Origin: a virus
Strand: one strand, 5' to 3'
DNA length: 59,163 nt
Virus record (IMG/VR): IMGVR_UViG_3300036770_001786
Location: 1 to 59,163 of that record
The notes beneath the pieces were generated by a model. That model searched no databases. It was not told the DNA's origin and saw only the letters and a list, made by a program, of their open reading frames with translations. The position numbers and the translations under genes were made by a program. Each line of letters opens with the position of its first letter. Position 1 is the first letter of the stretch. This document shows, piece after piece, positions 9,658-29,287 of the stretch.

Positions 9658-10088
9658 AGGAATGCCCTCACTTTCAGCGGATCTCCGGTGACCTTCGCGA
9701 TCACCTCGTGGTCATTGAAGACCGAAAACAGCGCCGTCTCGCCTATTGCGGGATCCCCAAAGGGTACTTCCCAGCGATCGCCGCCCCATTTCGGCACGCG
9801 CACGTAATCACCGACTTCCACCCAATTGCCTTCCGGCCAGGGTTCGAGCGTATCACGCTTTTTGAATGCCAACGGACCCACCGCGATCACCTTTGCTACT
9901 TGGTTGTTCCACTTCTCAGTCTCTTTCGTCTCTTCGACAAGGACTATGCCTGAGGCCGTGGTCTTTTTGATCGTTTGCCGCCACTGGACTAAAATACGTC
10001 CACCGACAGGCGATGCACCCGGGTCCACCTCGGGAAATGCTTCCCGCAACGCGGCTTCATTCGAAGCAACCGGTTCACTCATGTTCAT
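9654..10088 (-). CDS. GroES-like co-chaperonin (Cpn10 fold)
   Basis: GGRILVQWRQ..TASGIVLVEET...VAKVIAVGP...VEVGDYVRVPKWGG...LFSVFNDHEVIAKV aligns by eye with GroES (DRVIVKR..SAGGIVL..GEVLAVGNG..VKVGDIVIF..ILAIV). Confidence 0.7.
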   Translation of the reverse strand: MNMSEPVASNEAALREAFPEVDPGASPVGGRILVQWRQTIKKTTASGIVLVEETKETEKWNNQVAKVIAVGPLAFKKRDTLEPWPEGNWVEVGDYVRVPKWGGDRWEVPFGDPAIGETALFSVFNDHEVIAKVTGDPLKVRAFL

Positions 10089-10266
10089 CTGGTTCCCTTA
10101 AAATTTCGTTAAGTATATCCAGAGCTTTCTCAAGCCCTTGATACTGGCCCACGAGGCGTTGGTACGACTCAAAGTTTACCGCGTGACCCTCAACGAGTGA
10201 CATTGAAATACGATTTTGTTCGGCCTTCACCATTCCGATGAAGTCCGAAGTTGATCGTACGGCCAT
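10075..10266 (-). CDS. Hypothetical small protein (63 aa)
   Basis: ORF tightly packed between neighbouring genes, helical-looking sequence. Confidence 0.6.
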   Translation of the reverse strand: MAVRSTSDFIGMVKAEQNRISMSLVEGHAVNFESYQRLVGQYQGLEKALDILNEILREPDEHE

Positions 10267-10267
10267 A

Positions 10268-10447
10268 CTACTTGGACTTCACACGGGCGAGAGCACCCGA
10301 GGAAGCATTGCCACGAGTGTTCGAGGACGACTTCTGCCCTTGACTACCCTTGGACTGCAGCGAGGTGCCATCAAGCTTAGCACCCATGGCGAGGCGGGCC
10401 TTCATACGAACCATCTCGCTCATTTGTTCTTGATCAGACGTTGCCAT
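10268..10447 (-). CDS. Hypothetical small basic protein (59 aa)
   Basis: ATG 10447 is preceded by AAGGAG at 8 nt. The track start at 10456 is less likely. Confidence 0.6.
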   Translation of the reverse strand: MATSDQEQMSEMVRMKARLAMGAKLDGTSLQSKGSQGQKSSSNTRGNASSGALARVKSK

Positions 10448-12977
10448 TTTCAGCACTCCTTAAGTTTTCGGTTGCGCCTTGCAGCGCGGTTAATGCAGCT
10501 TGCTGCTGCTCCTGCTGCAGAGCGACGGTGTCGCGCGTAATCTCCGCAGTCTTGATTCGTTCATCGGTCAGGTTATCGGCGGCATTCAACGCGATCTTGA
10601 TCTGCTGCTCCCGGTTTGCACGCAATGCCTCCTGGGTCAGTCGCTCTTTTTCCAGCGCCAGATCGGCCTTGTCCTTTTCGGCTCGCCGTTGAGTCTCGGC
10701 CATCGAAGTCTGCAGGATCACCTGATCGCCGCCGTCCATTGGTGGCTTAGGCGCAAACTGCTGCATCACCTGCTGGATCTGCTGAATGGCGGGCATGACC
10801 TTGGAGAAAGACTCCTGCACGTCCATCATCGTGTGCTGCGAAGCCAACGCGAAGAGCTTGTCCACATCGCCCGTGATGCCGGCCACGTGGTAATCTTTGA
10901 TCTTGCCCCCGAGCGACTCTTCCACGTACCCGTTCATGTGGTTCATGTACCAGAGCATTAGGTGCTGCTTGAGGTGCTCCATCACCATCGGCAAGAAAGT
11001 ACGCGCGATGATCGGGTTACTACCTAGCATCGGATTCAGCGCATAGTCCAAGTGCGCCTGGATGTGCGCCAATTGATTCTGGTGTGGGTATGCATAGGCG
11101 GCACGACCAATCGACATTGCGGCATTTTCCTCCGCTGCATTAATCTCCATCGGCTCCGCGATTGCCGGCATAAGCTCGGTGATGTTGGGGATCTTCATCT
11201 GCTTGAGCGCCCGGTACACCACCGCCCGCTGGTCGAACAGCTGCGGGTACTCCTTCATGTACGCCATGACCGCCTGATTCTGGGCCATGCGTTGCGTCTC
11301 GGAGAAAATGTGGGGGTCCGACACCGGAATCACATCGGTCGAGCGATTAAAGTCTTCACGACGGATTTCGAGATTCGCCGGTACCTCGGGGTTCAGCATG
11401 TCCTCGATGTACCAGCGGTTGATCCGCTGCAGGATCATGAGCGTCTTGCGTTGCGACTCGTGCAGGCGGGCGTGAATCGCGGAGAAAACGGCGGCGCCCT
11501 GCTCAATCAGCGCCTGCGTCGTGCCGACGGGAGCAGTGCCCGGGATGTCGGCGATCTTTTCTTCCGATGTGGTGACCACGCCTTTCGCGGCATTCGTCAG
11601 CCACCCAAGCAGCTTGAACAGCGTTTCGCTCGGCGGGTTGAAGGGCATCGGCATCGCGATCTTGCGGATGTCGTCCACACCCGGTGCACCCTCGATCTCG
11701 GTTACCTGAGTGACGTCGACCGACTGGCTTTGCCCCGAAATCTTCGCCCCTTTAAGCTTCAGCATCGTGGCCGAGTTATTGATGTGCGCAGTATCGAGCA
11801 GCGCACGCAACGAGCCAGTGAGTGCAGCAGACAGGCCACCGATCAGGTGCGGCAGGCCGATCGCATAAGCACCACGCCAGGGGATAAACTTCCACTCCAC
11901 GACCCAGTCGAGCTTGGTCATCGTCGGGTCGCCCTGCTCCCAGTTGCGGTACAGACCCAACACCTCGGTGTCTATCTCGTCGATCATCAGGATGTAAGGC
12001 GCGTACTGACCCTCGGAGAATTTGTCGTCCTCCAGCTCCATGTAGCAGTAAATGTGGTACACACGACGCACGCCGTCCTCATTTTCATTCGGCGTCTTGC
12101 CCTCGACCTTGTTCGTGGCCTTCTGCGCCTCGGAGGTCTCGGGCTCCATGGTGGCACGCACGAATGACACGTCGCGGTACAGGCCCTGCGAGATCCGGTC
12201 CTGGAAGGTCTGCTGCGTGATGTCGTGGATCTCGGTCGCACGCTGCGCGGTGTAGAAATTGTTCGACGCGAAGGGCAGTAGCATGTTGTCGATCGGGATA
12301 AACTCGACATCCGGGCGACGCAACCGAGCATCCCACCACATCTTCATGTACTGCGAGCCACCTAGCGGCAGCTGCGTGAGCAGCACCTCTTGCTCGTCCC
12401 GGAAATTCGGGATCTGCTCGGTGAGCTGCCAATTCATGAAATCACGCTTGCGCTCAGCCCGCTTCGTCTGCTCCTCGGTCGCCTCGCCTACCACATGCGT
12501 GCGCACCGGACCATCAGGCGGGAACAGCTCTTTGATCGCCCGTGCCTCGAAGTCCACGCAGGCCTCAGCCATCACCGGGTGCACCACCTTGCTTGCACCC
12601 TGGAAGTCGGCACCACCCGGCGCGTCATTACCAAGACCCGTGCGGCGAATGCCCTCCTCGTACTGTTTATCGCGCTCTTTGCGCGCCTGCTTGTCCTTCT
12701 CGATCAGCTCCAGGTAGCGTAACGCAAGCTTCTGCATCTCGTACTCGGGCATCGTGTCGGCCAGATTCTGGTAGAAGTCCTCGTCCTCATTCGGACCCTT
12801 GAACTCCTCCATGCGCACGATGGCAGACCCATCGGGCTGCTCCTCGACTTCGGCGAATTCCTCCTCGATGTCGACAAACGTGCCGTCATCTTCCTCTTCA
12901 CCTTCCATCATCTCTTCCCCTTCGAGCATCTCTTCATCCTCGACGGGCATTTGGGGTTGCGGAAATTCGATTGCCAT
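10434..12977 (-). CDS. Portal protein
   Basis: 847 aa, one gene downstream of TerL. Acidic N-terminus and a long C-terminal helical/coiled segment (..ALEKERLTQEALRANREQQIKIALNAADNL..) like P22-type portal barrels. Confidence 0.75.
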   Translation of the reverse strand: MAIEFPQPQMPVEDEEMLEGEEMMEGEEEDDGTFVDIEEEFAEVEEQPDGSAIVRMEEFKGPNEDEDFYQNLADTMPEYEMQKLALRYLELIEKDKQARKERDKQYEEGIRRTGLGNDAPGGADFQGASKVVHPVMAEACVDFEARAIKELFPPDGPVRTHVVGEATEEQTKRAERKRDFMNWQLTEQIPNFRDEQEVLLTQLPLGGSQYMKMWWDARLRRPDVEFIPIDNMLLPFASNNFYTAQRATEIHDITQQTFQDRISQGLYRDVSFVRATMEPETSEAQKATNKVEGKTPNENEDGVRRVYHIYCYMELEDDKFSEGQYAPYILMIDEIDTEVLGLYRNWEQGDPTMTKLDWVVEWKFIPWRGAYAIGLPHLIGGLSAALTGSLRALLDTAHINNSATMLKLKGAKISGQSQSVDVTQVTEIEGAPGVDDIRKIAMPMPFNPPSETLFKLLGWLTNAAKGVVTTSEEKIADIPGTAPVGTTQALIEQGAAVFSAIHARLHESQRKTLMILQRINRWYIEDMLNPEVPANLEIRREDFNRSTDVIPVSDPHIFSETQRMAQNQAVMAYMKEYPQLFDQRAVVYRALKQMKIPNITELMPAIAEPMEINAAEENAAMSIGRAAYAYPHQNQLAHIQAHLDYALNPMLGSNPIIARTFLPMVMEHLKQHLMLWYMNHMNGYVEESLGGKIKDYHVAGITGDVDKLFALASQHTMMDVQESFSKVMPAIQQIQQVMQQFAPKPPMDGGDQVILQTSMAETQRRAEKDKADLALEKERLTQEALRANREQQIKIALNAADNLTDERIKTAEITRDTVALQQEQQQAALTALQGATENLRSAENGNV

Positions 12978-14294: not shown

Positions 14295-15720
14295 ACGGGT
14301 TCACCCTTTGCTGGCGTTGTTCGTCCTCGTCGTAGTACTCGGACTCGGGCGGCGGTGGGTCAATCGAAAGGAAGGTCAAGTCACGCAGCAAACGCAACGC
14401 CTGCGAAACTGTGTCGGTCAGGTCATCACGCTGCGACTCGGGGAAAGAGCAGACCTGCGACACCAACGGCTCTGCCCAATCACGCGGCTGGCCTCGGTGC
14501 TGCAGGGACTCGGGCACGTAGACGCGGCCACGAGCAATCACGTTGGCCACCAGATGCAAACGCTGCACCTTATCGGCTCGCCCAGGATTGTACGCACGGC
14601 ACGGGATACCAGCACGCTGCAGATCCTGAATGATCGAGATGCCTGCGGCCTTGTCCTCAACGAGCACCATGTCGACCTTCTTGCCCGGTTCGCCGTAGAT
14701 CGAGCCGTACTCCTCGATAATCTTGGGGCGAAGGTCGGGGTAGGCCAGGAAGTCCTCCCAACAGTCGATGAGCATGGCGCAGAAGGGCGAGTCGTCGTCA
14801 GGGCGAAAGATGCCCCAGACGCTGCACGCAGTCGGATCGTTGATCGTTTTCTCGGTGTACGCGCAGTCGTAGGACTGCAGCACGTAGATGAACTCGGGGA
14901 ATTCGCGATCGGCAGGCCAGAGGCGAAACCAGTCGCGCTTGATGATGCCGTAGTCCTCGGGGTCGATCACCTCGGCGTAAAGCTCCTGGCGTCCGATGCG
15001 CGTGCCCTCATACTGCGAGATGATTTCGTCCCTAAACGACGGTGCGAGATTCACGAAATTCTCATGCGTCGTGCCTGTGGTCAGGTAAGTGCGCTCATCT
15101 TCCATCAGTCGCCGCACAATGGGAATCGGCTTGGGCGTGGTAGTCACCACACCACGTGGACGAGTACCAAGACGCAGACCGAACATGAGGTTTGACCACA
15201 TCTCCTCGGCATTACGGAACTTGGCCAGCTCATCCACCCAGAATAGGTCGTGCTGCGGTCCCCGGAGTGTCTCGGGGTCATTGTCCGAGTAGATCGTGGC
15301 AATGGCACCGTTGGGCCACTCAATGCGTCTCTTAGATGGCACGAAAGTGGGCTTGCATGACGGGTGCGAGATGGCCAGGATGCCCGATTCGCCCTCAATC
15401 ATAACGTCGCGCGCATCGCCCGCGTCTTCCGCTATCAGTGCGATACGGGAGGCCAGCTTGTTTTCGACGTGATAGCGCACGAACTCGGCGCCGCATCGTG
15501 TTTTGCCCCACCCGCGACCGGCCAAAATGAGCCACGTTACCCACCAGTCCTCCTGAGGCACAAGCTGATTCGGGCGTGCCCAGGTCTGCCAATCATAGAA
15601 GAGTTCGACGACTTCAGGCGGAGTGAGCGAAGCGCAAAACTCCTCCCAGCTCTCGCTTTCAGGAATCTGTTTCTTCTTGCGTCTTTGACTTCGCGCTAAG
15701 CCGTTGGGCAAGACGATCAC
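14284..15720 (-). CDS. terL: Terminase large subunit
   Basis: Walker A LILAGRGWGKTRCGAEFV, FWVDELA, and a C-terminal nuclease half (SYDCAYT...LVEDKAAG...DDLTD). Resembles the GTA/Terminase_6 type TerL of alphaproteobacterial elements. GTG start. Confidence 0.9.
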   Translation of the reverse strand: MIVLPNGLARSQRRKKKQIPESESWEEFCASLTPPEVVELFYDWQTWARPNQLVPQEDWWVTWLILAGRGWGKTRCGAEFVRYHVENKLASRIALIAEDAGDARDVMIEGESGILAISHPSCKPTFVPSKRRIEWPNGAIATIYSDNDPETLRGPQHDLFWVDELAKFRNAEEMWSNLMFGLRLGTRPRGVVTTTPKPIPIVRRLMEDERTYLTTGTTHENFVNLAPSFRDEIISQYEGTRIGRQELYAEVIDPEDYGIIKRDWFRLWPADREFPEFIYVLQSYDCAYTEKTINDPTACSVWGIFRPDDDSPFCAMLIDCWEDFLAYPDLRPKIIEEYGSIYGEPGKKVDMVLVEDKAAGISIIQDLQRAGIPCRAYNPGRADKVQRLHLVANVIARGRVYVPESLQHRGQPRDWAEPLVSQVCSFPESQRDDLTDTVSQALRLLRDLTFLSIDPPPPESEYYDEDEQRQQRVNPYAI

Positions 15721-16330
15721 GGAGACCCTCTACGTTGACGTTGGTATCAAGAGACCCCGACACGTTCAAACTCACGTCCTTCGCCCGGAAGCGTGAGTCG
15801 TAGCCCATCAGGGTGAACTGCAGCAGCGAATCGCTGTACTTTTTGATTCGGTGTCCGGTGTCGGCGCCCTGATAAAACACGGGCTCTTCCACACCAACCA
15901 CCGAGCGACGATAGGCCTCAGCGCGCATCGAGTCCACCATTTCGTCTTGAATCGAATTCAGCAGCGCGTCGAACAGCGGATGATCACCACGCCACAAATA
16001 AAGCGTCTGCCGACTGACGCAAGCTTTTTTGTAAGCGTAGCGCAGCGAAAACCGCTCCTCCTGACCATCACGAAACTCGGCCAGGATGATGAGCATCTTG
16101 AACGCTTTGGTCTCCTCGTATTTCTTGAGCGTCCCGGTCGCGGTAGCACGAGGGTCGTTGCAATTGAGGGAGGCAGGATTCAGGCACCCGTCGCTGTCGG
16201 GCAGGCGTGAGCGAGTGCGCTTGATCTCAGCAAGCAGCGTCTGAATCTGAACACCCGCACGACGCTCGTACTCGGCGATCGTCTCGGGTCCGATTTCTGA
16301 TAAGTTTACGTTGCCGTCGTTGAAGTACAT
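15659..16330 (-). CDS. terS: Terminase small subunit (putative)
   Basis: Immediately upstream of terL and overlapping it. HTH-like ACVSRQTLYLWRGDHPLF and YSDSLLQFTLMGYDSRF. I prefer ATG 16330 because 16395-16423 is occupied by iterons. The start remains uncertain. Confidence 0.6.
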   Translation of the reverse strand: MYFNDGNVNLSEIGPETIAEYERRAGVQIQTLLAEIKRTRSRLPDSDGCLNPASLNCNDPRATATGTLKKYEETKAFKMLIILAEFRDGQEERFSLRYAYKKACVSRQTLYLWRGDHPLFDALLNSIQDEMVDSMRAEAYRRSVVGVEEPVFYQGADTGHRIKKYSDSLLQFTLMGYDSRFRAKDVSLNVSGSLDTNVNVEGLRDRLAQRLSAKSKTQEETDS

Positions 16331-16499
16331 GAGCGTGATGATAACACGCGTTTGGGTCTCGCCACAATTCAAATGGTTGGAGATGCGTGGTGCGCCGTGT
16401 TCCGTGACTGTTCCGTGAAACAACGAATCGCAGAACGTGAAACAGCTCTCGCGAATTCGACTTACGCACGCGTATGAGACCCCTTACCCCAGAGAGACT

Positions 16500-16562
16500 A
16501 TTATAGTAGTAGAGGGATACTTGGCGTCTGAACGACCCTTCTGTGTTCCATTAAGGTGGAAC
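16500..16562 (-). promoter_or_regulatory. Candidate activator-dependent late promoter
   Basis: A TATAAT reads on the minus strand at 16505-16500, with no acceptable -35 and no TGn. The palindrome GTTCCA-N6-TGGAAC is centred about 51 bp upstream of it. A second TATAAT lies at 16656-16651. Confidence 0.3.
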
Positions 16563-16659
16563 GGGTGACGGAACACCCTACTGCCTCGAAGCCCGCGTCC
16601 TTCGGCCTTTTTCGGAAATTGTTCCGTTGTGTATACCGTTCCATCTGCCAATTATACCT

Positions 16660-16679
16660 CTGTCGCAGGCTTGCGACAG
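16660..16679 (-). terminator. 8-bp stem hairpin ctgtcgca-ggct-tgcgacag at the end of the early module
   Basis: Perfect inverted repeat read directly. The tail is A/U-rich but has no U run. Confidence 0.3.
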
Positions 16680-16788
16680 GATAATGGTCGCGTACGCGTG
16701 TAACGGTGGAACAATTGCTCCGGGGTCCTTCTCTTACGGGGGGCTTCGCTGTTCCATCTCTGTTCCGTCAAGGTAGAACGGTAGAACG

Positions 16789-17295
16789 CTATTTTGGTAT
16801 GCTGATGCTCGGTACTACTCGCAACACTGGTGGCGCCATTGCAGCGGTCACACACGAATTAAACCACGCCTGTTGCAGCAAGTCAATCATCATTTTTGCG
16901 TCGCGCACGTTCCACCCCAGGGCTTGGTGGCCGTACTTGATACGAAATTGGTCGACCGAAAGCCTGTTATTCGCGGCCAGCGCGTCGTGGGCGCCGAGCA
17001 CGAAGATCTCGTTCGTCCGGTCGAAGTGAATAACGAGCCACACGGGGGTCAGTGCCTCTGCGAATCGAAGCGCCCAGGCCTGTTGGCCGGCGGTCCAGTT
17101 CGAGATCTTGAATTTCGTCGTGCCGCGTGTCGGTTGCCGGTAGGCTTTCAGTTCGATCCAACCGTGCACCTCGTGGTGCGAGAAAAAGAGGTCGGGCATT
17201 GACTTTTCGACCCGATTCTCAACGCGGGTTGCCACCCATCGCCCGGACATGAGCGACGAGAGGCGGTCCCAGAGGCGTTGTTCAGGCAGTCGCAT
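16789..17295 (-). CDS. VRR-NUC-like PD-(D/E)xK nuclease
   Basis: SMPDLFFSHHEVHGWIELK...WTAGQQAW fits G-x-PD...E-x-K...Q..W. It co-occurs with SNF2 and AEP primase genes, as in many phage replication modules. Confidence 0.55.
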   Translation of the reverse strand: MRLPEQRLWDRLSSLMSGRWVATRVENRVEKSMPDLFFSHHEVHGWIELKAYRQPTRGTTKFKISNWTAGQQAWALRFAEALTPVWLVIHFDRTNEIFVLGAHDALAANNRLSVDQFRIKYGHQALGWNVRDAKMMIDLLQQAWFNSCVTAAMAPPVLRVVPSISIPK

Positions 17296-18071: not shown

Positions 18072-18623
18072 TTAAACGGTGGCGGGTGCCGAAATGGCAC
18101 GGTAGTGGGCGCGCAGCTTGTTGCCCAGGTTCATGCGTTGCATGCCGGCATTCAGGTGGCCGTACCGGGCACGGAGCGACTCGACCGACTCCTGCACCTC
18201 TTTCGCCACGGCCTTGTAGACGAATTCAAGGGCAAGGCAGCGCAGGACCTGTGCCACGCCGTCGCCGTTGTCGAAGGAAGACTTCGTGCCGCGCTTGTAC
18301 GACTGGTACTTGCCCAGGTAGGCCGAGTCGATCACGCCATTCTTGCGCTCCGAGAGCGGCTTGCGAGCCCGGGGTGCGGCAGGAGTACGACCGGCCTTGG
18401 CCGTGGGCTTCTTGGGCTCAGGAAGGGCATTGGCGGCGGTGGCCTGGGCGAAGATCTCGGTCACCGGGGTGCTGGTAGCACGGACGGTGACGGGTTGCAG
18501 CTGAGCGGCACGGAAGGAGCGGGTGGTGCCGTCGGCCATGCGAAGCGTGGTCCAACCCTTCTCGACCTTGACGACTTCGTGGGTGGTGCCGGCTTTGATG
18601 ATCATTGCGTGTTGTGTGTTCAT
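18072..18623 (-). CDS. Hypothetical protein; C-terminal HLNAGMQRMNLGNKLRAHY motif
   Basis: 183 aa, first gene behind promoter 18668-18696, with the ATAGAGGAC leader. Confidence 0.75.
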   Translation of the reverse strand: MNTQHAMIIKAGTTHEVVKVEKGWTTLRMADGTTRSFRAAQLQPVTVRATSTPVTEIFAQATAANALPEPKKPTAKAGRTPAAPRARKPLSERKNGVIDSAYLGKYQSYKRGTKSSFDNGDGVAQVLRCLALEFVYKAVAKEVQESVESLRARYGHLNAGMQRMNLGNKLRAHYRAISAPATV

Positions 18624-18667
18624 TTTGACTGTCCTCTATTAAGTGATTGAAAGTACTACGAAACTGA

Positions 18668-18696
18668 ATTATAGCACGGGTGAAATAGGCTGTCAA
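18668..18696 (-). promoter_or_regulatory. Sigma70 super-consensus early promoter
   Basis: Minus strand reads ACTTGACA-gcctatttcacccg-TGc-TATAAT: -35 at 18696-18691, 17-nt spacer, extended -10, -10 at 18673-18668. Confidence 0.8.
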
Positions 18697-18702
18697 GTAC
18701 CC

Positions 18703-19391: not shown

Positions 19392-19422
19392 TTCGTCTGT
19401 CCTCTATTAGGTTATCAAAGCA

Positions 19423-19836
19423 CTACGAAACTGAATTATAGCATGGGTGGGCTAATTGTGTCAAGTGGGGTAGCTCGACCGGTCGGACGCGGCCTCGCAG
19501 AATCTGCTCGTAGTACGCGTTGACCACAATTTCGAGCATCACGGGCTCGATCGCATCGGCCAGCAGCGTGAGGTTCATGTGGTACTGGTCGTAAGTCCCG
19601 TACTTCAGGTCACCCCGAAAGTCGGTGACCTTAATGCGAAAAACCGGCCACACCTCTTTACTTTCGTTTGCCAGATCCTCGTGGTGCAAATCCCAATAGA
19701 CGTTGGACGCGCGACGAAATCGTTCAAGCGCTTTGTTCGCATAGGGCATTTTTACCTTGCCCACGAATGGTATCAGGTCGTTCAGGGGTTGCAGCAGGTG
19801 CTGATAAGGCGAATTGCCGTCGATGAAGCGTTTCAT
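19423..19836 (-). CDS. Hypothetical protein (137 aa)
   Basis: ATG 19836 is preceded by CATAGAGGACTCTTACGAA. Confidence 0.7.
   Translation of the reverse strand: MKRFIDGNSPYQHLLQPLNDLIPFVGKVKMPYANKALERFRRASNVYWDLHHEDLANESKEVWPVFRIKVTDFRGDLKYGTYDQYHMNLTLLADAIEPVMLEIVVNAYYEQILRGRVRPVELPHLTQLAHPCYNSVS
19435..19464 (-). promoter_or_regulatory. Sigma70 super-consensus early promoter
   Basis: ACTTGACA (19464-19459), 18-nt spacer ending TGc, TATAAT (19440-19435). It is embedded in the 3' end of ORF 19423..19836. Confidence 0.75.
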
Positions 19837-20985: not shown

Positions 20986-21030
20986 TTTGAAGTGTCCTCT
21001 ATTAAGTGATTAAAAGGTAAAGCAACCCGT

Positions 21031-21059
21031 ATTATAGCACAGGTGCTCTACCCTGTCAA
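21031..21059 (-). promoter_or_regulatory. Sigma70 super-consensus early promoter
   Basis: ACTTGACA (21059-21054), 17-nt spacer ending TGc, TATAAT (21036-21031). Confidence 0.8.
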
Positions 21060-21070
21060 GTCGTCCGATC

Positions 21071-21438: not shown

Positions 21439-21483
21439 TTCGGGTCTGTCCTCTATTGGGTTATAAAAGTACTACGAACCCGT

Positions 21484-21512
21484 ATTATAGCACGGGTCCG
21501 GTAATTTGTCAA
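21484..21512 (-). promoter_or_regulatory. Sigma70 super-consensus early promoter
   Basis: ACTTGACA (21512-21507; the TGA stop of gene 21509..21907 lies inside it), 17-nt spacer ending TGc, TATAAT (21489-21484). Confidence 0.8.
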
Positions 21513-21907
21513 GTCGAGAATGCGTCGTACCGCTTGACCATCTCTTTGTACGCGACGTGCGACGGGTCTTCAGGTCGATTGAGCTGGTCGGCCACCAATT
21601 TCGCGTACCCGGCGATGTCGGTCCAAGAGTCCTCGTGGTCAGGGTTCCCGCAGACGATTCGGGCCATCTTCGTGCAGATCAGTTCGAGCGACTCCCACTG
21701 GTAGGGTGCTACCCGACCGGAACCAGCAGCCTCACGGAGCGTGTCCTTGAGTTCCTGCGCGACTTGAGCCATCATCTTGAAATCTCCGTATTGTTCCCCG
21801 CGTTGTGCCAGCACGTGATGCACGTCAGTCACAGGTATTGGTACCATAGTTTCTATACCCGGCTCTATAGTAAAACCGCTCGTAATCTCAACCATTGATT
21901 CCCCCAT
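21509..21907 (-). CDS. Small all-alpha phage protein (DUF6378-like, tentative)
   Basis: RGEQYGDF...LELICTKMARIVCGNPDHEDSWTDIAGYAKL matches a YG..F / K..R / DSW.D.aGYA pattern I recall from phage nucleotide-metabolism neighbourhoods. Confidence 0.6.
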   Translation of the reverse strand: MGESMVEITSGFTIEPGIETMVPIPVTDVHHVLAQRGEQYGDFKMMAQVAQELKDTLREAAGSGRVAPYQWESLELICTKMARIVCGNPDHEDSWTDIAGYAKLVADQLNRPEDPSHVAYKEMVKRYDAFST

Positions 21908-21921: not shown

Positions 21922-23133
21922 CTAGGCAGCTGCTGCCGCGAGTCCACCACGACGATAACGGCCTTTGAAGTCCACGGCGGGGTCACGCGAGCCCCGGAGA
22001 ATGCTTTCTGCGATCTCCTCGGGCGTCAACCCTAGCTGCAGTCCCCGAGTCGCTGCTTCGGTCGTGAGAGCCCTTCCGAGAGCACCCGCACCGAGCCCAC
22101 CGGGTGCCGCTGCCTTGTCCTTGCTTTGTTGAATCACCGGGCCTACGATGCTCTGCAATCTCTTCGTTTCAGCCGGGTGCAGGCTTTGCTCATATCCCGG
22201 AATCCGCGATTGGCGAGCGCGAAACGCGTTCAGCAGCTCCAGATACCCCGCTGCACCCATAGGGTTGTCAATCGCTCCCTTGGCGAGATTTCCGGTCGAG
22301 GCACTAATCATCTGATTGATCCGCTTGTCATACAGATCCGTGGTCCCCAACAGCTGAGACAGATACGCACGCGCGTCGTTCTCTTGCGCTAGTCGATCCC
22401 CTGGCATCCCGAATATCCGGTTGCTCAAACCTTCACTCGGAAACCCCGTACCCTTCTCACTGGTGGGCATCACATTCCTGAGTGATCCTTGAGCGTAGGC
22501 AGTGTTAGCGACGTTTAATGGACGACGCAACGCGTTACGGGAGGTGAGCGCATCAGCCACATTCAAATCCCCGGACGAGCGCATCAGGTCGTAAAGCATC
22601 TGGTATCCCTGGCTCCCCGCCCCCTCGGGCGCAGCAAGAGCACCAAAGTGCATAGGCCGAGGCTCGGGTCCCCCTGCGAATCGACCGAGGTGCAGATTCG
22701 CCATCATCCTCGTCACACCCGGATAAAGCTTCGGATCCAGGACGTACTTATCTTCGTCAATCGTGAAGTACTTGCGGTCGGATCGTAGGATGTCGTCCAT
22801 GCGATCGCCGTAATCTTTCGCCAGAGTACTCTGTGGGAAAAAGCGAACTCTTGAATTCAGCGGAAGTCGAGATCCGAGGGCAGGCTTCATCATCGAAGTG
22901 TCCGACATGTCCATGATGTCGGCTGCATACGGCTCACCCGAGGGCAGTTTGCCGAGCATCTCGTTCTCGGAGTAAAACTGCACGATCTCGCCGGGCGTCA
23001 TTCCCTCGGTCTGCTGTCGCTTGGCCACCGGTACCTTCGCCGATTCCGGCACTTGCCGCACTATCTCCTGGTGGGTCTTGCCAATTCCGGTCAAGAGATC
23101 TACAAGGGACATGGCACGCTTGCTCTTACTCAT
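21922..23133 (-). CDS. Hypothetical 403-aa protein ending FKGRYRRGGLAAAAA
   Basis: ATG 23133 is preceded by GAGGTG. It overlaps the HDAC-like gene end by 8 nt, which suggests coupling. I recognise no family. Confidence 0.75.
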   Translation of the reverse strand: MSKSKRAMSLVDLLTGIGKTHQEIVRQVPESAKVPVAKRQQTEGMTPGEIVQFYSENEMLGKLPSGEPYAADIMDMSDTSMMKPALGSRLPLNSRVRFFPQSTLAKDYGDRMDDILRSDRKYFTIDEDKYVLDPKLYPGVTRMMANLHLGRFAGGPEPRPMHFGALAAPEGAGSQGYQMLYDLMRSSGDLNVADALTSRNALRRPLNVANTAYAQGSLRNVMPTSEKGTGFPSEGLSNRIFGMPGDRLAQENDARAYLSQLLGTTDLYDKRINQMISASTGNLAKGAIDNPMGAAGYLELLNAFRARQSRIPGYEQSLHPAETKRLQSIVGPVIQQSKDKAAAPGGLGAGALGRALTTEAATRGLQLGLTPEEIAESILRGSRDPAVDFKGRYRRGGLAAAAA

Positions 23134-23950
23134 AACACACCTCATCGCAAATATTCAACGTCTGCAGGTGAATGTCGACCACTTTTTGCGTTGGGTGTGA
23201 GTAGCCACCTGCTAGATTCCACACCAGAGGCGTCTTGAAATCACGTGCTGCCTGGAAGATCGCCCGATCTCGCATCGCCAATTGCTCCATCGACAGGTAC
23301 CCCGCGTTGTACGGGTCCTGGTCCCAGGCGTCGGCGCCTGCCTGATAAAAAATTATACCCGGCCTGTAGTGGCTTAGCAAGTCCGACACCCACTGATGCC
23401 ATATGTTCTGTACCGTCCAATTCGCCATCTGCTCCTTGAACCCCCGCCCCCGGGTGATGTTGGTCACCTGCTTTTCGAGCCGCAGCTCCTCGATTATGTC
23501 ATCCGTCCCATCCCCCAGGTGCGCATCCCCGTCCAGAATCAGAATTTTGCCGGCCTTCTCCACCAGATCCGCAGCGGCGATCATAAGCCCGTTGAACGTG
23601 CAGTACCCATACCCGTTGTTGTAGTGTGCATGGTGGAACCCCTGCGAGGCCGAGCAGGTCACGATGCGGTTTTCGAGCGCGTGGCGGGCGGCGGCAAGGA
23701 AGGAGGCGTTTGAGTACCGAAGCGACTCGTTCACGCTCGGGTTCCTGTTCCCGAATCCGTTGACTGTGCGCTGCGAGAACACGTTGTGCACGTACTTCGG
23801 CTCATGTGCTCGCATGAACTGCTGATCGGAGAACGGCTCGAAGTCCGAGTGCGGGAACCGCATGGACTGGTCGACAAACATCGGGATCTTCGACAGCGAA
23901 ACGAAGTCGTAGGACGAGCGCTGCTTCGGGTGAAAGAATATGGGGGTCAT
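23126..23950 (-). CDS. Zn-dependent deacetylase of the HDAC / acetylpolyamine amidohydrolase (arginase-fold) family
   Basis: The catalytic motifs are intact: GFHHA, GYCTFNG, ILILDGDAHLGDGT, YQAGADAWDQDP and NLAGGYS. Confidence 0.8.
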   Translation of the reverse strand: MTPIFFHPKQRSSYDFVSLSKIPMFVDQSMRFPHSDFEPFSDQQFMRAHEPKYVHNVFSQRTVNGFGNRNPSVNESLRYSNASFLAAARHALENRIVTCSASQGFHHAHYNNGYGYCTFNGLMIAAADLVEKAGKILILDGDAHLGDGTDDIIEELRLEKQVTNITRGRGFKEQMANWTVQNIWHQWVSDLLSHYRPGIIFYQAGADAWDQDPYNAGYLSMEQLAMRDRAIFQAARDFKTPLVWNLAGGYSHPTQKVVDIHLQTLNICDEVCYE

Positions 23951-24565: not shown

Positions 24566-24770
24566 GTCTAACACCTCCGTTGGTCTCACTGAAAAGATCC
24601 ATTTGTCCACTATCCACTCGATCCACCTCATCAACCACCTCCATCTGTGCCTCACGTGTTGTAAATCGAATCCCACACTCCAAGCACTCGCGACGTCTAC
24701 GCACCGTGTTTACCGCATTTTGATAGGTCGTAGTCACGCGGGTGTCACCACCACAAGAAACGCATCTCAT
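24534..24770 (-). CDS. NrdR-like zinc-ribbon protein lacking the ATP-cone
   Basis: MRCVSCGGDTRVTTTYQNAVNTVRRRRECLECGIRFTTRE compares with E. coli NrdR MHCPFCFAVDTKVIDSR...VRRRRQCLVCNERFTTFE. It is only 78 aa, so no ATP-cone can be present. Confidence 0.7.
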   Translation of the reverse strand: MRCVSCGGDTRVTTTYQNAVNTVRRRRECLECGIRFTTREAQMEVVDEVDRVDSGQMDLFSETNGGVRHEEASARGSN

Positions 24771-25327
24771 TTGAATATCCTCACATGCAGAATTCGCTCG
24801 CAGATGATCTGCGTGGCGAAGTACAGAGACAGCTCCGGATGCATCTCCACCGATGCATTGGCGAGTTGGTTTATCGATTGCTCGATTCTAATCAGCACCT
24901 CCTTCGCGTGAATCCCCACCCCGTTATCCTGCAGGAAGTACGCGGCCTCGATCATGTCGGCGAGCTTCACAATCGTCTCGATCGGAGTCCCCTTCACCCG
25001 CATATGTCGTGCGTGATAGTCCGGGTCGGCGATCTTTTCCGCGTCGTTTATGATAGACTCACCACCCGCCTGCCGCAAGCACTCTTTGAAGGGCGACGCC
25101 AAGTCCCCGGTCTTGACCTCGATCAGGTCATGGAACATCGCCCAATGCATGAGTTCTAACCGCTGCTGCGGCACCTGGAGTCCGGGCCACTTGCCGTGCA
25201 GGGCGAGTTCCCCGGCCAGAATACAGACGTGGAAAGAATGCTCGGCCAGGGTCTGCGTGCGTGACGTCTGCACAATCTGCCACCGCTTCACATGGCCGGC
25301 GCGTAGCTGCTCAGTTAATGTTAACAT
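24767..25327 (-). CDS. datZ: HD-domain phosphohydrolase (YfbR-like), DatZ-like dATP hydrolase by context
   Basis: RWQIVQTSRTQTLAEHSFHV...AMFHDLIEVKTGDLASP carries the H...HD...D metal motifs. It lies in the same operon as the PurZ-like and MazG-like genes. Confidence 0.7.
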   Translation of the reverse strand: MLTLTEQLRAGHVKRWQIVQTSRTQTLAEHSFHVCILAGELALHGKWPGLQVPQQRLELMHWAMFHDLIEVKTGDLASPFKECLRQAGGESIINDAEKIADPDYHARHMRVKGTPIETIVKLADMIEAAYFLQDNGVGIHAKEVLIRIEQSINQLANASVEMHPELSLYFATQIICERILHVRIFK

Positions 25328-25571
25328 AAGAAATCACCTTGATTCGTTCGATCATGTCGGCCACCTCATCGGCAGACAGGTTCTTGTCGTACCCTTCCGT
25401 TTCCAGTCGTGCATAAAACTGCTCGGCTGCTGCCGTGAGTGCCGCATTCCAGGTGGCTACCGTCGCTGATACGAGCTTGAATCGCACCTCCGGCGTCTGG
25501 TCCGGGAATAGCACATTGAACCACCGATTGAACTGCACGTGTTTCGGGTCTACTACTGGTTCTGTGCTCAT
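25311..25571 (-). CDS. Hypothetical protein (86 aa)
   Basis: ATG 25571 overlaps the MazG-like stop (ATGA) and is preceded by GAGG. Confidence 0.65.
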   Translation of the reverse strand: MSTEPVVDPKHVQFNRWFNVLFPDQTPEVRFKLVSATVATWNAALTAAAEQFYARLETEGYDKNLSADEVADMIERIKVISYVNIN

Positions 25572-26053
25572 ACGTGCCTCATGATTCGGGTATTTGTGTC
25601 TACCGTCCATTCGCGGTGCTCGTTGATGTCCATCTTCTCGTTTACCGCCTTGTGAATGTCGATTCCGTTCATCGCCGCAGCGTCCAGAAGCAGAATCATA
25701 ACGTCGCCCAATTCGTGCGCAGACTTCGGGTTTCGCGCGTACTCGCCGAGTTCCTCGTAGAGCTTGAGTAGAACGTCAGCAGTGGACCGCCCCGGGAACT
25801 GTTTATCGGCCCAATCCGTCACCCGCTGCTGCAGCTGCCGAATGTCGGCCCCCGACCGCTTCGTGTAGGCGTTCACCGCCCGCGCTGCGAGTTCGCAATT
25901 CTTGTACGCTCCCTCCAACACCCCCAGGGTCGAGTGCCGCACCTCGAACGTCGCGATCATGGCGCCATTGGCGTCTTTAAGCTCGGTATCCTCCGCGTGC
26001 CACGGGGTGGGCGAGAGTTCTTTGGTGTGAAAATCCGATTCATACTTAGGCAT
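25568..26053 (-). CDS. mazZ: MazG-like nucleotide pyrophosphohydrolase, MazZ-like by context
   Basis: ATG 26053 is preceded by ATAGGAGGAATTTCA. The C-terminal half WADKQFPGRS..LLKLYEELGEY...ELGDVMILLLDAAAMNGIDIHKAVNEKM is the MazG EExxE/D helix pattern. Confidence 0.7.
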   Translation of the reverse strand: MPKYESDFHTKELSPTPWHAEDTELKDANGAMIATFEVRHSTLGVLEGAYKNCELAARAVNAYTKRSGADIRQLQQRVTDWADKQFPGRSTADVLLKLYEELGEYARNPKSAHELGDVMILLLDAAAMNGIDIHKAVNEKMDINEHREWTVDTNTRIMRHV

Positions 26054-27188
26054 TGAAATTCCTCCTATAAGTCCGCCACATTTCAAGAATTCGTTTCCGT
26101 CGATCCGTCGATTGCGTGCAGCCCCAGATGGTATCATCAATCTCCAGTACATCCGACTCGGTTGGCCCTAACCCGATCGCCGCAATCCGGCAACCCTCGA
26201 TTGATTCGATAGCGTTCACAATGCGAACGATCTCGGCCTCATCCTGCACATAATTTACGAAGTTCAAAAACACCCGATCCACGCCATTGTATCGAATAGC
26301 CTCCTGAATCTGGGTCTCGCTGAACGTGAACACCCGACGCGGTAGGTTCGTCACCGTGGTGTACTCCTGCGGCTGTCCGATATCGGTGAACGAGATCTCG
26401 CGCTGGTCATCATAGCAAGGTCCGCTCCACTCGGTGAGCTTCACCTCGGTACCATTGTCCGCGTAGCGATTAGCCACCCGGATCGGATAAGTGCGAGCGG
26501 TGCCGTAAACGTGAAAAGCGCTCCCGGATTTGGCTTTCATCACCTTGGTCATTGATACGCCAGCATCGGCCAGGATTTGCATCGTGCTCACATCGCGGGA
26601 GGTGGTGTAAGGATAGAACCCATGGTAGATCGACAGGCTGTAGCCTTGTGCGCCTTCGATCATCAGGTTCTCGGCCTTATCGACTAAATCGTGCCACTCC
26701 TCGGTGGTAACCACAAATTGCATCAAACCCGGGCAATGCGAAGCAACGTTCGGCTCTTCCACCCGACGATTGATCCGGTCGATGATCGCCGCACCTACGC
26801 CTTTTCGCGTAGAACCAATCTTGCCCGGGTTCTCGCTCTCGATCTGGCGGTGCCGTTCAAGCACGACCGCCGCATGAGGGTGAATGTAGAATTTAACCTT
26901 CCGCGCCTCGATGATGTCCTTGCACGCCGCCATCTCGGCCAAAAGCTTCTGGGGGTCGATCACCGAACCCGGCCCCAAGAGCACCTTATCACAGAAGTCC
27001 GACACGATCCCGAGCGCTAATTGGGTGTGCACGAATTTGCGGCCCTCCTTGTCGATGAATGTGTGACCCGCGTTGGGCGCCCAAGTCGTGATCACCGTGT
27101 CGTACGCGTGACGCTTAGCGAGCCACCCGACAAGAAGTCCCTTGCCTGTGCTGCCGTACTGCAGATCTAGTACTAAATCTATACGCAT
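26046..27188 (-). CDS. purZ: Adenylosuccinate-synthetase homologue, PurZ-like (N6-succino-2-amino-2'-deoxyadenylate synthase)
   Basis: PurA scaffold motifs are present: DLQYGSTGKG (PurA: QWGDEGKGK), PNAGHT, IGSTRKGVGAAI, IEGAQGYSLSIYHGFYPYTTS and TYPIRV. It is flanked by a family-A polymerase and by MazG and HD genes. Confidence 0.78.
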   Translation of the reverse strand: MRIDLVLDLQYGSTGKGLLVGWLAKRHAYDTVITTWAPNAGHTFIDKEGRKFVHTQLALGIVSDFCDKVLLGPGSVIDPQKLLAEMAACKDIIEARKVKFYIHPHAAVVLERHRQIESENPGKIGSTRKGVGAAIIDRINRRVEEPNVASHCPGLMQFVVTTEEWHDLVDKAENLMIEGAQGYSLSIYHGFYPYTTSRDVSTMQILADAGVSMTKVMKAKSGSAFHVYGTARTYPIRVANRYADNGTEVKLTEWSGPCYDDQREISFTDIGQPQEYTTVTNLPRRVFTFSETQIQEAIRYNGVDRVFLNFVNYVQDEAEIVRIVNAIESIEGCRIAAIGLGPTESDVLEIDDTIWGCTQSTDRRKRILEMWRTYRRNFNA

Positions 27189-27194: not shown

Positions 27195-29027
27195 TTATCC
27201 CTTTGCATCATACCAGTTATCGCCCAGTCCCCAGTCGCAGGTGATAGGTACCCGCAGCCCGATTGGGCATTCTTTTCCATCGAATGTTGTATATATATGC
27301 GCTATATGTTCCGCGTGCTCCTTCGAGTCGTTGTCTAAAGATATCCCCACTTCATCGTGCACGGTCAGCAGCAGCCGCCCGCATTCATGCTCAGCCAGAT
27401 ACTCGTGCAGCTCGATGAGCTTCTGCTTCATGCAATCAGCGGACGTTGCCTGATAAATAAGCCCCGACGCCTTGTGCACGAACTGCCCACCCGGAAACCG
27501 GATGTGCCGCCCCATGATCGAATGCACGAACCCCCGCTCCTTGGCGATACTGGACGCCTTCTGCGCCATGTTCCGCATCCCAGGATTCGCGGAGTGGTAT
27601 TTCTCGAACAGCTCCATCGCCTCGGGTCCCGCCTTGAGGTACACGTTCCCGTTCGGCCCGGTCTCCTCCGTGTACGGCAACCCGCACTCCTGCGCCAGCT
27701 TCCCCGACCCCATGTTGAAGGCCAGCCCCAGGTTAATCGCCTTGGAAGAGGGACCACCGGCGTATTGGGCGTTCCGGGGGATTCCGGTCATATCAGATAC
27801 TAGCTGGTGGAAGTCCAGATTCGGGTTATCCGCGTACGCCTTGATAATGGCCGGCACGTTCCCGTAGTGGTTCGCCACCCGGAACTCGAATTGCGACCAG
27901 TCCATACCGAGCCATTGAGCGCCGTGGTCGGCCAAGAAGATCGGACGAATCAACGCCTTGATCTCTTTATCCCGTGACGGTATCTGCTGCAGCGCCGGGT
28001 TCGTCACCGAGAGCCGTCCCGTGCCGGTCCCCGCTTCCGCGTCATTCTTGGTCTGGTTGTAATTGCAGTGGATGACCCCGTCGTGGTGGTGCCCCAGAAT
28101 GTGGCCCGACAGAAACGTGTCGCGCGTCTTGAGCATCTTGCGCAGATCCAGAATCATCTTGGCCGCAGGGTGTTTCATCCGCCGCAGGCACTCGGCGTTG
28201 ATCGACGCCTTTCCACCGTCGGTCTTGTCAGCCCGGGTGCCATCGATCAAGTACCATTCATTGTCATCGCGCAGCTCGGGCTTGAACAGTTCGGTGATGG
28301 ATCCGGAAGGGTTCGGGTTCACCTCGAAGCCTGCCATCTTATTCAGATCCCTCTGCATGATGTCGACCCGACGGGTAAGGTCCTCGACGGCCTCCTCGGC
28401 ACGCTCTACATCAACCCGCACGCCCTGCTGCTCCATGTCGATGATCACGGGCATTAACCGCTGCTCAAGGGCGTAGACCTGATGCAGACCCTGCCGCTCG
28501 ATCTCCTGCTCCTGCCACTCGTAAAGCGCGTAGGCCGCGACCACGTCCTGCTTGGCATAGGGTGCTACTACCTGCGCCGGCGCTTTCGATATGTTCGGCA
28601 TCTGTGCGTTCCGCGTGGCCCTCCCGCCGAAAAGCTTCGCCAGCTGCTCGTAGATCTCCTCTTCCTTCTTCTGCCCCGCATACTTGCGTGCCAAGAAGTC
28701 CAACGCGTAGGTGGGCTCGTGCTCGTTTATCAACGCGCCCCGGACCATCGTACAATGCAGCCGGTTCAAGGGCAGCACGATCCCCGCCTCACGCAGAAAA
28801 TGGTAATCGAACTTGATGTTGTGGTTCACCCATCGCGTGACCGCCTTCGACTCGGCGAGGTCCCGCAGGAAGTCCACCGCCGTGGGTGTCTGCCGCAGAT
28901 CCCAGTAGAAGGGCTCGACGCCCGGGAGAAGCAGCGACACACCGAAAACGCGGTCCTGCCACCATTTCAGCCCGGTGGTCTCGCAGTCGATCGTCACGAC
29001 TGTAGGGGAGTCAATACGGGGAAACAT
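27195..29027 (-). CDS. dpoZ: Family-A DNA polymerase with 3'-5' exonuclease, DpoZ-like by context
   Basis: Exo I IDCETTGL, motif A DWSQFEFRV, motif B SSKAINLGLAFNMGSGKL and motif C LLTVHDEV. ATG 29027 overlaps the TGA of the upstream gene, and the 48-aa track extension is out of character. Confidence 0.85.
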   Translation of the reverse strand: MFPRIDSPTVVTIDCETTGLKWWQDRVFGVSLLLPGVEPFYWDLRQTPTAVDFLRDLAESKAVTRWVNHNIKFDYHFLREAGIVLPLNRLHCTMVRGALINEHEPTYALDFLARKYAGQKKEEEIYEQLAKLFGGRATRNAQMPNISKAPAQVVAPYAKQDVVAAYALYEWQEQEIERQGLHQVYALEQRLMPVIIDMEQQGVRVDVERAEEAVEDLTRRVDIMQRDLNKMAGFEVNPNPSGSITELFKPELRDDNEWYLIDGTRADKTDGGKASINAECLRRMKHPAAKMILDLRKMLKTRDTFLSGHILGHHHDGVIHCNYNQTKNDAEAGTGTGRLSVTNPALQQIPSRDKEIKALIRPIFLADHGAQWLGMDWSQFEFRVANHYGNVPAIIKAYADNPNLDFHQLVSDMTGIPRNAQYAGGPSSKAINLGLAFNMGSGKLAQECGLPYTEETGPNGNVYLKAGPEAMELFEKYHSANPGMRNMAQKASSIAKERGFVHSIMGRHIRFPGGQFVHKASGLIYQATSADCMKQKLIELHEYLAEHECGRLLLTVHDEVGISLDNDSKEHAEHIAHIYTTFDGKECPIGLRVPITCDWGLGDNWYDAKG

Positions 29028-29287
29028 CAGAATGGGTAGTCGTCTTCGAGATCGTCGAGATTCTGCGCCTTCGGGGGTGCCTTGGGCTTCACCCCATCCT
29101 TCGGCTTGATCTTCAGATGGAAGTACTTCTGTCCCTCGATCTTGGAACCCTCTTTGCCCGTGTTCACCCAAGCCGACAGCCAGTAATCCACGCCATCGAC
29201 GTTGATTGAACCCGTAAACTCCGGATGCTTTTCGGTCTCGCGATTGCGATTCCGCATCAACATCCCGGTATTGGTATTATCGTACAT
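29027..29287 (-). CDS. Small protein with an SSB-type acidic C-terminal tip (DDLEDDYPF)
   Basis: 86 aa. A beta-rich core (FTGSINVDGVDYWLSAWVNTG..YFHLKIKPK) is followed by a Pro/Lys linker and a tail like SSB DDDIPF. First gene behind promoter 29322-29351. Confidence 0.6.
   Translation of the reverse strand: MYDNTNTGMLMRNRNRETEKHPEFTGSINVDGVDYWLSAWVNTGKEGSKIEGQKYFHLKIKPKDGVKPKAPPKAQNLDDLEDDYPF

Follow-up and report, generated by a model that had tools for sequence, protein, structure and literature searches.

The ori and crr regions of satellite phage P4 carry type I iterons (TGTTCACC) which are bound by the alpha primase-helicase through its C-terminal winged-helix domain; alpha requires both regions. 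In lambda, OL and OR hold three sites of 17 bp per array and overlap divergent promoters 2.4 kb apart, while ribbon-helix-helix (RHH) and centromere arrays include the 8-bp boxes of MetJ, the heptads of pSM19035 omega and parC of plasmid R1. The core origin of SV40 and polyomavirus contains four GAGGC pentanucleotides as inverted pairs, beside palindromic and AT-rich elements. The Bacillus phage SPP1 has two distant and similarly organised repeat regions, oriL and oriR, one at the initiator gene and the other between genes of the late region; a single initiator, gp38, binds both, and it was proposed that forks stall at the second copy and that synthesis thereby switches to concatemers (PMC6316719). 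Here we examine a pair of arrays of short GTTCC repeats in a 59,163-nt phage sequence, IMG/VR record IMGVR_UViG_3300036770_001786 (the window, by which the whole of this stretch is meant). Array A lies upstream of terS and array B upstream of the gene for an archaeo-eukaryotic primase (AEP). Judged from its sequence and its relatives, the pair is most likely of the origin type, in preference to a late promoter or a packaging site.

The pair resembles oriL and oriR of SPP1 in consisting of two distant, similarly organised repeat regions, one at the initiator or primase gene and the other intergenic. However, SPP1 has a few longer direct repeats and a clear AT-rich unwinding element, whereas each array in the window combines 10-14 sites of 9 bp, in a dyad-symmetric 8/11/13-bp geometry, with GC hairpins and lacks an AT-rich stretch. 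The SPP1 initiator set is gp38, gp39 and gp40, whereas the presumed initiator of the window phage is an AEP primase module. With P4 the arrays share iterons of octamer size and similar sequence, in direct and inverted orientation, two separated cis-regions and, putatively, a primase-type initiator. P4 alpha is, however, a fusion of a Toprim primase with an SF3 helicase, whereas the window protein is an AEP with a PriCT-1 domain and no helicase domain, and comparison of the window primase with the DNA-binding domain of alpha gave no sequence or fold match; the resemblance of the motifs may be a coincidence. Two inverted multi-site arrays flanking a block of genes also recall OL and OR, where one protein binds and can form a loop, but the window arrays have about 12 short sites each and are 19 kb apart, transcription is one-way and only one array abuts a promoter. 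The likeness to RHH and centromere arrays lies in tandem sub-sites of 7-11 bp, direct and inverted, sometimes in two blocks around a centre, although no ParA/ParM partner or RHH protein was detected in the window phage. SV40 likewise has pentamer cores, two forward and then two reverse around a centre, but is a eukaryotic virus with an SF3 helicase as its initiator.

Results

The original prediction, made on the window alone, reported at least ten GTTCC/GGAAC cores in about 390 bp upstream of terS, where about one would be expected by chance. Exactly ten are present (at 16399, 16410, 16545, 16558, 16570, 16621, 16638, 16708, 16751 and 16762) and the genome rate, 168 per 59,163 bp, corresponds to about 1.1 per 394 bp. 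The palindrome GTTCCA-N6-TGGAAC (16545-16562) and the direct pairs with 11-bp spacing (16398/16409 and 16750/16761) were confirmed, and the second cluster proposed at 35.7-36.0 kb is real, with 12 cores; what the prediction stated about the sequence itself is right throughout. A genome-wide count, of the kind put forward as a check for TGGAACR, found 35 copies of the extended motif YGTTCCRY in the window, ten in region A, nine in region B and 16 scattered. That is, 19 of the 35 fall in two regions of about 400 bp, and every other 400-bp interval has at most two. GTTCC is otherwise in local excess at 41.5-42.5 kb (41497-41723 and 42469-42530), on one strand only and inside a 1403-aa open reading frame (ORF); these copies belong to coding tandem repeats of 24-30 nt, do not fit the extended motif and are unrelated to the arrays. 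By eye, GGAAC could be taken for a DnaA box or an extracytoplasmic function (ECF) sigma factor -35 element. This was rejected, as the motif is found in tandem on either strand and the CAC of a DnaA box is missing from many sites.

By alignment, A and B are inverted copies of one composite cis-element of about 330 bp. The plus strand of A (16458-16787) aligns end to end with the minus strand of B (36092-35755) at 77% column identity (MAFFT), and a blastn search of A against the whole window returned B as the sole match, on the opposite strand (E 2e-9). Within this inverted repeat a 40-nt module of four sites is 88% identical. The alignment also takes in blocks outside the repeats, namely CGACTTAYGCRCRCGTATGAG, TTGGCGTCTG and a GC-rich block. 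What had been proposed is a genuine repeat array of the protein-binding type, and the same element is present at the other module boundary. The copies stand 19.3 kb from each other, with exactly the early and replication module, from the AEP primase to PolA, PurZ, MazZ and DatZ, between them. In each, 10-14 YGTTCCAYC sites are set at fixed spacings, in tandems of 8 bp, direct pairs of 11-12 bp and inverted pairs of 13 bp, together with two conserved hairpin-like blocks. The window copy is somewhat degenerate, with GTTCT and GTAAC variants and a G for A after the core. The coordinates of these parts are listed in Table 1.

Table 1. Positions of the array parts, promoters and genes discussed in the text.
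Feature	Position	Strand	Remarks
Element A	16458-16787		Between terS and the final gene of the early module, whose stop codon is at 16789; inverted relative to B
Two degenerate 8-bp tandem sites, GTTCTACC GTTCTACC (gene strand)	16772-16787	-	Outer half of stop-proximal four-site module; aligns to GTTCCACCGTTCCA in relatives
Direct pair TGTTCCATCTC/TGTTCCGT, 11-bp spacing	16750-16768	+	Inner half of stop-proximal module; columns 90-100% conserved
Centre pair GTAAC GGT GGAAC, 8-bp spacing	16700-16712	+	Site variant GTTACA common in relatives
Hairpin/palindrome 1, CTGTCGCAGGCTTGCGACAG	16660-16679		Array centre
Centre sites GTTCCGT and GTTCCAT	16621-16642	+	17 bp apart here; 8-bp pair at same position in relatives
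GC-rich hairpin-like block 2, GAAGCCCGCGTCCTTCGG	16586-16605		Family consensus AAAGCCCCG-acgga-CGGGGCTTTT
terS-proximal module	16545-16574		Palindrome GTTCCA-N6-TGGAAC and GGAAC at 16570
Conserved flank block TTGGCGTCTG	16521-16530		B counterpart 36020-36029
TATAAT of original prediction	16500-16505	-	Present, unconserved
Conserved end block CGACTTACGCACGCGTATGAG	16458-16478		B counterpart 36072-36092
Clade-specific extra pair TGTTCCGTGAC TGTTCCGTGA, 11-bp spacing	16398-16418	+	About -69 to -84 from terS ATG
Predicted terS (late) promoter	16338-16367	-	-35-like TTGTGG (16367-16362), 18-nt spacer, TG-extended -10 TGtTATCAT (16346-16338), 7 nt, ATG 16330
terS	15659-16330	-	phrog_4044 match; start is ATG 16330, not TTG 16423
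Element B	35755-36092		Directly upstream of primase gene
Element B modules	35759-35795, 35834-35848, 35896-35919, 35989-36011		Block 2 at 35932-35952
Predicted primase promoter, TTGAAC-17-TGaTAGAAT	35721-35749	-	9 nt after last B site; leader with Shine-Dalgarno sequence into primase gene
AEP primase	34110-35666	-	PriCT-1 domain, Cys cluster, 200-aa C-terminal region with winged-helix-like units; candidate array binder
p183	18072-18623		phrog_8941; conserved early protein, alternative candidate binder
Tail and virion genes	59.1 to 36.2 kb		Reading along gene strand
Region B			500-bp gap between tail/virion genes and replication module
Replication module after primase			SF2 helicase, Pam3 gp32/33/34-like genes, UvrD-like helicase, small single-stranded DNA-binding protein, PolA, PurZ-like, MazZ-like and DatZ-like genes
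PolA, family A polymerase	27195-29171		Adjoins Z gene set
PurZ-like gene	26046-27188		phrog_1211
MazZ-like gene	within 24767-27188		PF04447
DatZ-like gene	within 24767-27188		phrog_7076
Small early genes	21.5 to 16.8 kb		Behind four perfect TTGACA-17/18-TATAAT promoters
Region A			458-bp gap from early genes to terS, terL and head genes

In IMG/VR, 476 relatives were counted by TerL, and 80 terL loci and 37 primase loci were fetched (single loci are given below by L numbers). The arrays were present in the fetched loci wherever the region was included, and are conserved in dozens of metagenomic relatives. Over 67 distinct homologous regions the spacings between sites on the same strand peak at 8 bp (203 cases), 11 bp (71) and 12 bp (66), those from a forward to a following reverse site peak at 13 bp (120 cases), and the consensus site is YGTTCCAYC. 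The conservation of these spacings rules out chance. In an alignment of region A from 48 sequences, the site columns are 90-100% conserved and the spacers 30-70%. Relatives preserve the design of the array better than the window genome does. Typically there are 12 sites with an overall dyad symmetry. The outer module has a forward pair at 8-bp spacing and, 13 bp on, a reverse pair at 11-bp spacing, and its mirror image stands at the other end; in the centre, a forward pair and then a reverse pair, each at 8-bp spacing, enclose about 63 bp of variable sequence. In some clades (L067/L091) the centre consists of 55 bp of AT-rich DNA flanked by inverted site pairs. Clade-specific centre sequence is common to A and B of one genome, although a quantitative test for concerted evolution gave only a weak trend, from extracted sequences of differing length. 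The loop of block 2 is conserved as strongly as its stem, and its core (GAAGCCCCG..GGACGSGG) is found in both arrays of PMBT28 and both of SH-Ab 15497, two cultured phages. The TGTCGC..GCGACA palindrome is also at the array centre in these two phages and in L097 and L100.

Homologues of the primase, 40-43% identical, occur in cultured siphoviruses with 2-aminoadenine (Z) genomes. SH-Ab 15497 has the same genome plan as the window phage, with gaps of about 460-480 bp before the primase gene and before terS, and the two gaps match in inverted orientation (70.8% over 233 nt, E 2e-29). Its repeat is GGTTGCTC in 8-bp tandems, with inverted copies too, and 9 of the 11 copies in the genome are in the two gaps. 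PMBT28 has the GTTCC motif as in the window (TGGAAC three times at 8 bp; GTTCCA pairs at 11 bp), in one array before the primase gene and another at 43.5-44.0 kb. The latter is 2 kb upstream of terS and 26 nt upstream of a perfect promoter. In all three phages two arrays bracket the replication/early module and carry the same GC-rich block and TGTCGC palindrome. Only 13 window proteins have detectable homologues across the three, all from the replication/early module, and no detectable homologue of the window TerS, TerL or structural proteins was found in PMBT28 or SH-Ab 15497. Therefore, the arrays travel with the replication module and not with the packaging module, which largely removes the interpretation of array A as a pac site next to terS. 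No prior description of the arrays was found in the searchable literature on PMBT28, SH-Ab 15497 and Z-genome phages.

An array is found immediately 5′ of the gene of this primase family in every lineage examined, but the repeat differs by lineage. GTTACA is mixed with GTTCC in L107. In L100 and L102, GTATCCG at 9-bp spacing replaces the 8-bp class and the 11-bp GTTCCA pair is retained. The repeat is CTATCACA in L110, TCACTAC in L111 and ATTCCA in L114 and L115, and the distant L112 has GTTCC. GTATCC stands before the primase gene in L099-L106 and before terS in L151 (TerL 71% identical). The motif switches in both copies together, as with GGTTGCTC in both arrays of SH-Ab 15497. Homology of A and B, with motifs that change in step, is as expected if one phage protein, or protein set, reads both. 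This fits the earlier suggestion of a single DNA-binding protein for both boundaries.

Viral contigs were also scanned for the pattern GTATCCGNNGTATCCG. Most matches were due to chance and only L151 and L138 were informative. L138 comes from a distant AT-rich phage (TerL 41% identical) and has GTATCCGatGTATCCG, a spacer of about 70 bp that is about 90% AT, and CGGATACacCGGATAC at 9840-9943. These pairs are directly upstream of a gene (10088-12391) with AEP/PriCT-2, D5_N and SF3 helicase domains, and a half-copy is found 7 kb away (2852-2867). The layout, with the same GTATCCG heptamer as the L100 clade, appears origin-like from its sequence.

The original prediction had also placed a late promoter with only a -10 element, dependent on an activator, at a TATAAT on the minus strand (16505-16500). 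The hexamer is there, but is kept in just 2 of 48 distinct relatives, which have the consensus CACTTA at this position. The proposed geometry, with the palindrome near -60 of this promoter, consequently has no comparative support. A different promoter-like element is found in essentially all relatives, about 160 bp further downstream and directly before the ATG: TTG(T/C)G(N)-18-TG-N-T(A/T)(T/C)(A/C)(A/C)T, followed by 7 nt to the ATG. The start of terS was set from its homology with TerS of relatives, which begins at residue 27-32 of the long ORF. No Shine-Dalgarno sequence precedes this ATG, whereas other genes have one. As the -10 element ends 7 nt before an ATG that has none, we predict a host-type TG-extended promoter giving a leaderless terS mRNA. 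The match to a canonical -10 is weakened by the hexamer of most relatives, TTTAAT, with a T at the normally invariant -11 A. On the other side of the module, the primase promoter is predicted to be a conserved promoter of the sigma70 type, with an equivalent in all 26 B regions examined.

The stretch between array A and the terS promoter differs between clades. In most relatives TTATAAC repeats take the place of the extra site pair of the window, and in the L067 clade the extra pair is at about -30 to -44 instead. Three TTATAAC repeats stand between the array and the terS promoter in L033 (about 5290-5345) and in most pre-terS regions, while the window genome has TTTCACG and CACGGAACA repeats at this position. 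This second, clade-specific set of repeats (TTATAAC in most relatives) could be the true TerS (pac) site. The earlier interpretation is partly supported overall, and 'iteron' may prove to be the right word, but for a replication element and not for one linked to terS.

Searches of PHROGs, Pfam and NCBIfam with about 60 ORFs found no helix-turn-helix (HTH), RHH, recombinase, ParB or initiator family. Two proteins remain as candidates for binding the arrays. The AlphaFold2 (AF2) model of the primase (predicted local distance difference test, pLDDT, 90) shows an AEP domain, a PriCT helical domain, a Cys cluster and a C-terminal region of 200 aa with two helix-helix-beta-hairpin units. When the primase was compared with stand-alone plasmid replicons, only weak matches to the AEP domain were found. 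The other protein, p183, is the only conserved protein outside replication besides a nuclease-like protein, and in each of the three phage groups its gene comes first behind a perfect early promoter. Its N-terminal domain varies between lineages (SH3-like in the window phage, but a zinc ribbon in both PMBT28 and SH-Ab 15497); a basic linker follows, and the C-terminal motif HLNxGMQRMNLGNxLR is invariant. The AF2 model of p183 has a pLDDT of 66, and Foldseek searches against PDB and BFVD gave an SH3-like N-terminus and uncharacterised viral homologues, with no annotated match. As an array binder, p183 is only a candidate.

Genome context

The assembly is circular, bases 1-126 being identical to 59038-59163, which gives a genome of 59,037 bp. 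On sequence grounds it is a novel tailed phage; a blastn search of region A against 50,697 phage records gave no match, and neither did Rfam and tRNA scans of the whole window. Long ORFs are nearly all on the minus strand. The sole stretch whose longest ORFs are on the plus strand is 1-2216 (1296-1760 and 1833-2216), and neither of these matches PHROGs. The scanned ORFs gave neither an integrase nor a repressor, and the phage appears virulent. A full set of PurZ, MazZ and DatZ homologues marks it as a candidate Z-genome phage, and its virion DNA probably has Z in place of A. If so, every A in the array sites and promoters discussed here would be affected.

A repeat of about 76 nt occurs four times on the minus strand (18623-18698, 19395-19464, 20986-21061 and 21439-21514). 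In each copy a perfect 12/12 sigma70 promoter (TTGACA-17/18-TGnTATAAT) is accompanied by a GAGGA ribosome-binding site, and the four promoters are presumably of the immediate-early class. Equivalent perfect promoters are present in PMBT28 and SH-Ab 15497. Adjoining array A is the gene for a 168-aa protein (16789-17295) in which a PD..E-x-K-like motif (PDLFF...GWIELK) can be made out by eye; its family is labelled 'DNA helicase' by PHROGs, and it is among the 13 proteins common to the three phages. Also in the early/replication module is an ORF (23126-23950) with a domain of the histone deacetylase family (PF00850, E 8e-33), which is unusual in a phage. Directly 3′ of the stop codon of the last late gene is a hairpin on the minus strand (36135-36160) with a 10-bp stem, GGGGTGGCTA-taat-GGTAGCTACCCC. 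Similar AGCTA..TAGCT hairpins are found at the same place in relatives, and although it has no T-run it probably terminates the tail operon.

Discussion

We tentatively favour, with confidence a little short of an even balance, the reading of the pair as a two-copy iteron-type replication origin or initiator-binding platform like oriL and oriR of SPP1. It is ranked above the other explanations because the element is linked to the replication module and keeps a constant position at the primase gene while its repeats are specific to the lineage, which is the typical behaviour of iterons next to an initiator gene. The two-copy plan that parallels SPP1, the AT-rich centres of some clades and the layout of L138 are further reasons. 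As in an iteron origin, a short repeat at fixed helical spacing (peaks at 8, 11-12 and 13 bp) is concentrated in the element, and copy B is 5′ of the AEP primase gene in all relatives. As in a two-copy origin, a distant and similar copy with a matching repeat exists in the window phage, SH-Ab 15497 and PMBT28. The pair would thus be comparable to oriL/oriR of SPP1 or ori/crr of P4. A protein of the replication module would load on both arrays, the leading candidate being the AEP primase through its winged-helix-like C-terminal region, with p183 as the alternative. Copy B would also feed back on the adjoining primase promoter. Copy A would mark the far end of the module and serve as a second origin, or as a site anchoring forks or a loop, just upstream of a packaging operon that would be driven by its own conserved TG-extended promoter and start with a leaderless terS mRNA.

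Several observations weigh against this. The best AT content over 30-50 bp in A and B is ordinary for this genome, so that an AT-rich unwinding element is missing here and an AT-rich centre is found only in some clades (L067/L091 and L138). Foldseek and profile searches of the primase against PDB matched the AEP domain alone; the C-terminal fold matches no origin-binding domain, and the sole fold match of this kind, to that of T-antigen, is insignificant (E 0.58). Nor does the identity of the primase, in bins of 40 residues, track the class of the motif: the C-terminal part of the L100 primase is 75-90% identical and yet its array has GTATCCG, while that of PMBT28 is 30-45% identical and yet its arrays have GTTCC. 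The orientation of the copies is not universal, being inverted in the window group and SH-Ab 15497 and direct in PMBT28. Lastly, the last B site is 9-12 nt from the -35 element in most close relatives and 20-22 nt in one clade, a step of one helical turn which is what a transcription factor site would show.

That last observation belongs to the most serious of the rivals, which we hold to be possible but less probable, in which the arrays are operators of a temporal regulator of the phage, for example of the p183 family, that switches the primase (middle) and terS (late) promoters, maybe through a loop between A and B like that of lambda CI at OL and OR. B abuts a conserved promoter of the sigma70 type with the helical phase kept, and in several genomes an extra site overlaps the -35 element or the spacer. 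The extra site pair at -69/-84 of the terS promoter here and at -30/-44 in another clade, the promoter 26 nt downstream of the second PMBT28 array and the resemblance of 8-bp tandem sub-sites to the operators of RHH repressors are in keeping with this, as is p183 itself, with its place behind the early promoter and its combination of a variable N-terminal and an invariant C-terminal domain. However, the main 12-site array of A is about 190 bp upstream of the terS promoter, and the distance from B to its promoter grows to 80-110 nt in PMBT28, SH-Ab 15497 and the GTATCC clade. The early ORFs yielded no recognisable fold or family of a transcription factor and no HTH or RHH match, and the N-terminal domain of p183 is SH3-like here but a zinc ribbon in PMBT28, although both phages have GTTCC. 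Two classes of spacing and two hairpin blocks also exceed the complexity of a typical operator. The origin and operator readings are not exclusive, since the sites of an initiator commonly regulate its own promoter.

An improbable alternative is that the arrays insulate the module boundaries, either as a protein roadblock with a (bidirectional) GC hairpin terminator against read-through or as the anchor of a 19-22-kb loop. The consensus of block 2 does run from an A-run through a stem to a T-run, both copies are at operon ends, and the long ORFs are on one strand of a circular assembly. In copy A, though, the T-run is on the antisense strand only, a loop as conserved as its stem suggests recognition of sequence rather than of structure alone, the late operon already has a separate terminator-like hairpin after it, and the second array of PMBT28 is within a region bearing early-type promoters. 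Very little weight is left for array A as a pac region bound by TerS. It adjoins terS in the window group and SH-Ab 15497, TerS sites typically have repeats with an 11-bp phase, and clade-specific repeats (a GGAAC pair here, three TTATAAC in most relatives) are found by the terS start. But a second homologous copy stands at the primase gene, two inverted pac sites would package in opposing directions, and PMBT28 has the same motif 2 kb from terS with a TerS and TerL not detectably related, so that array and terminase do not co-vary. We regard as just as doubtful the idea of recombination substrates, that is, the ends of an invertible or mobile replication cassette or patches of homology for module exchange. 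In its favour, inverted copies of about 330 bp bracket exactly the module that is common to otherwise unrelated phages, there are signs of concerted evolution between the copies, and a protein with a PD-(D/E)xK-like motif, as read by eye, is encoded at the A end. Yet in each of the 11 contigs with terL as well as the primase gene these two genes share a strand, and there is therefore no sign of inversion of the segment of the Hin/Gin type; the ORFs scanned gave no match to a recombinase or transposase family, the copies in PMBT28 are direct, and the rigid geometry of the sites suggests a binding platform over mere homology.

A bolder and rather unlikely proposal is that the arrays are the ends of a portable cassette for the replication of Z-DNA (AEP primase, helicases, PolA, PurZ, MazZ, DatZ, p183 and nuclease) that is exchanged between structurally unrelated siphoviruses. 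Bridged by a cassette protein into a loop of 19-22 kb, they would fire replication without an AT-rich unwinding element, which would be of no use in Z:T DNA, and time the middle and late promoters, with the conserved GAAGCCCCG..GGACGSGG block as the actual priming or melting site. Z:T pairs have three hydrogen bonds, and remove the easy melting on which AT-rich origins rely.

Taken together, these data correct the assignment of the promoter of the packaging operon and define a conserved cis-element, in two copies with about 12 sites each, a fixed geometry and a GC block, which is inherited with the Z-replication module. The element is widespread and well defined, and is best filed among paired iteron or operator arrays. 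It is present in tractable phages, Salmonella phage PMBT28 (with relatives in Klebsiella and Pseudomonas) and Acinetobacter phage SH-Ab 15497, and with these the function as an origin, the identity of the binding protein and the switch from early to late genes become directly testable.

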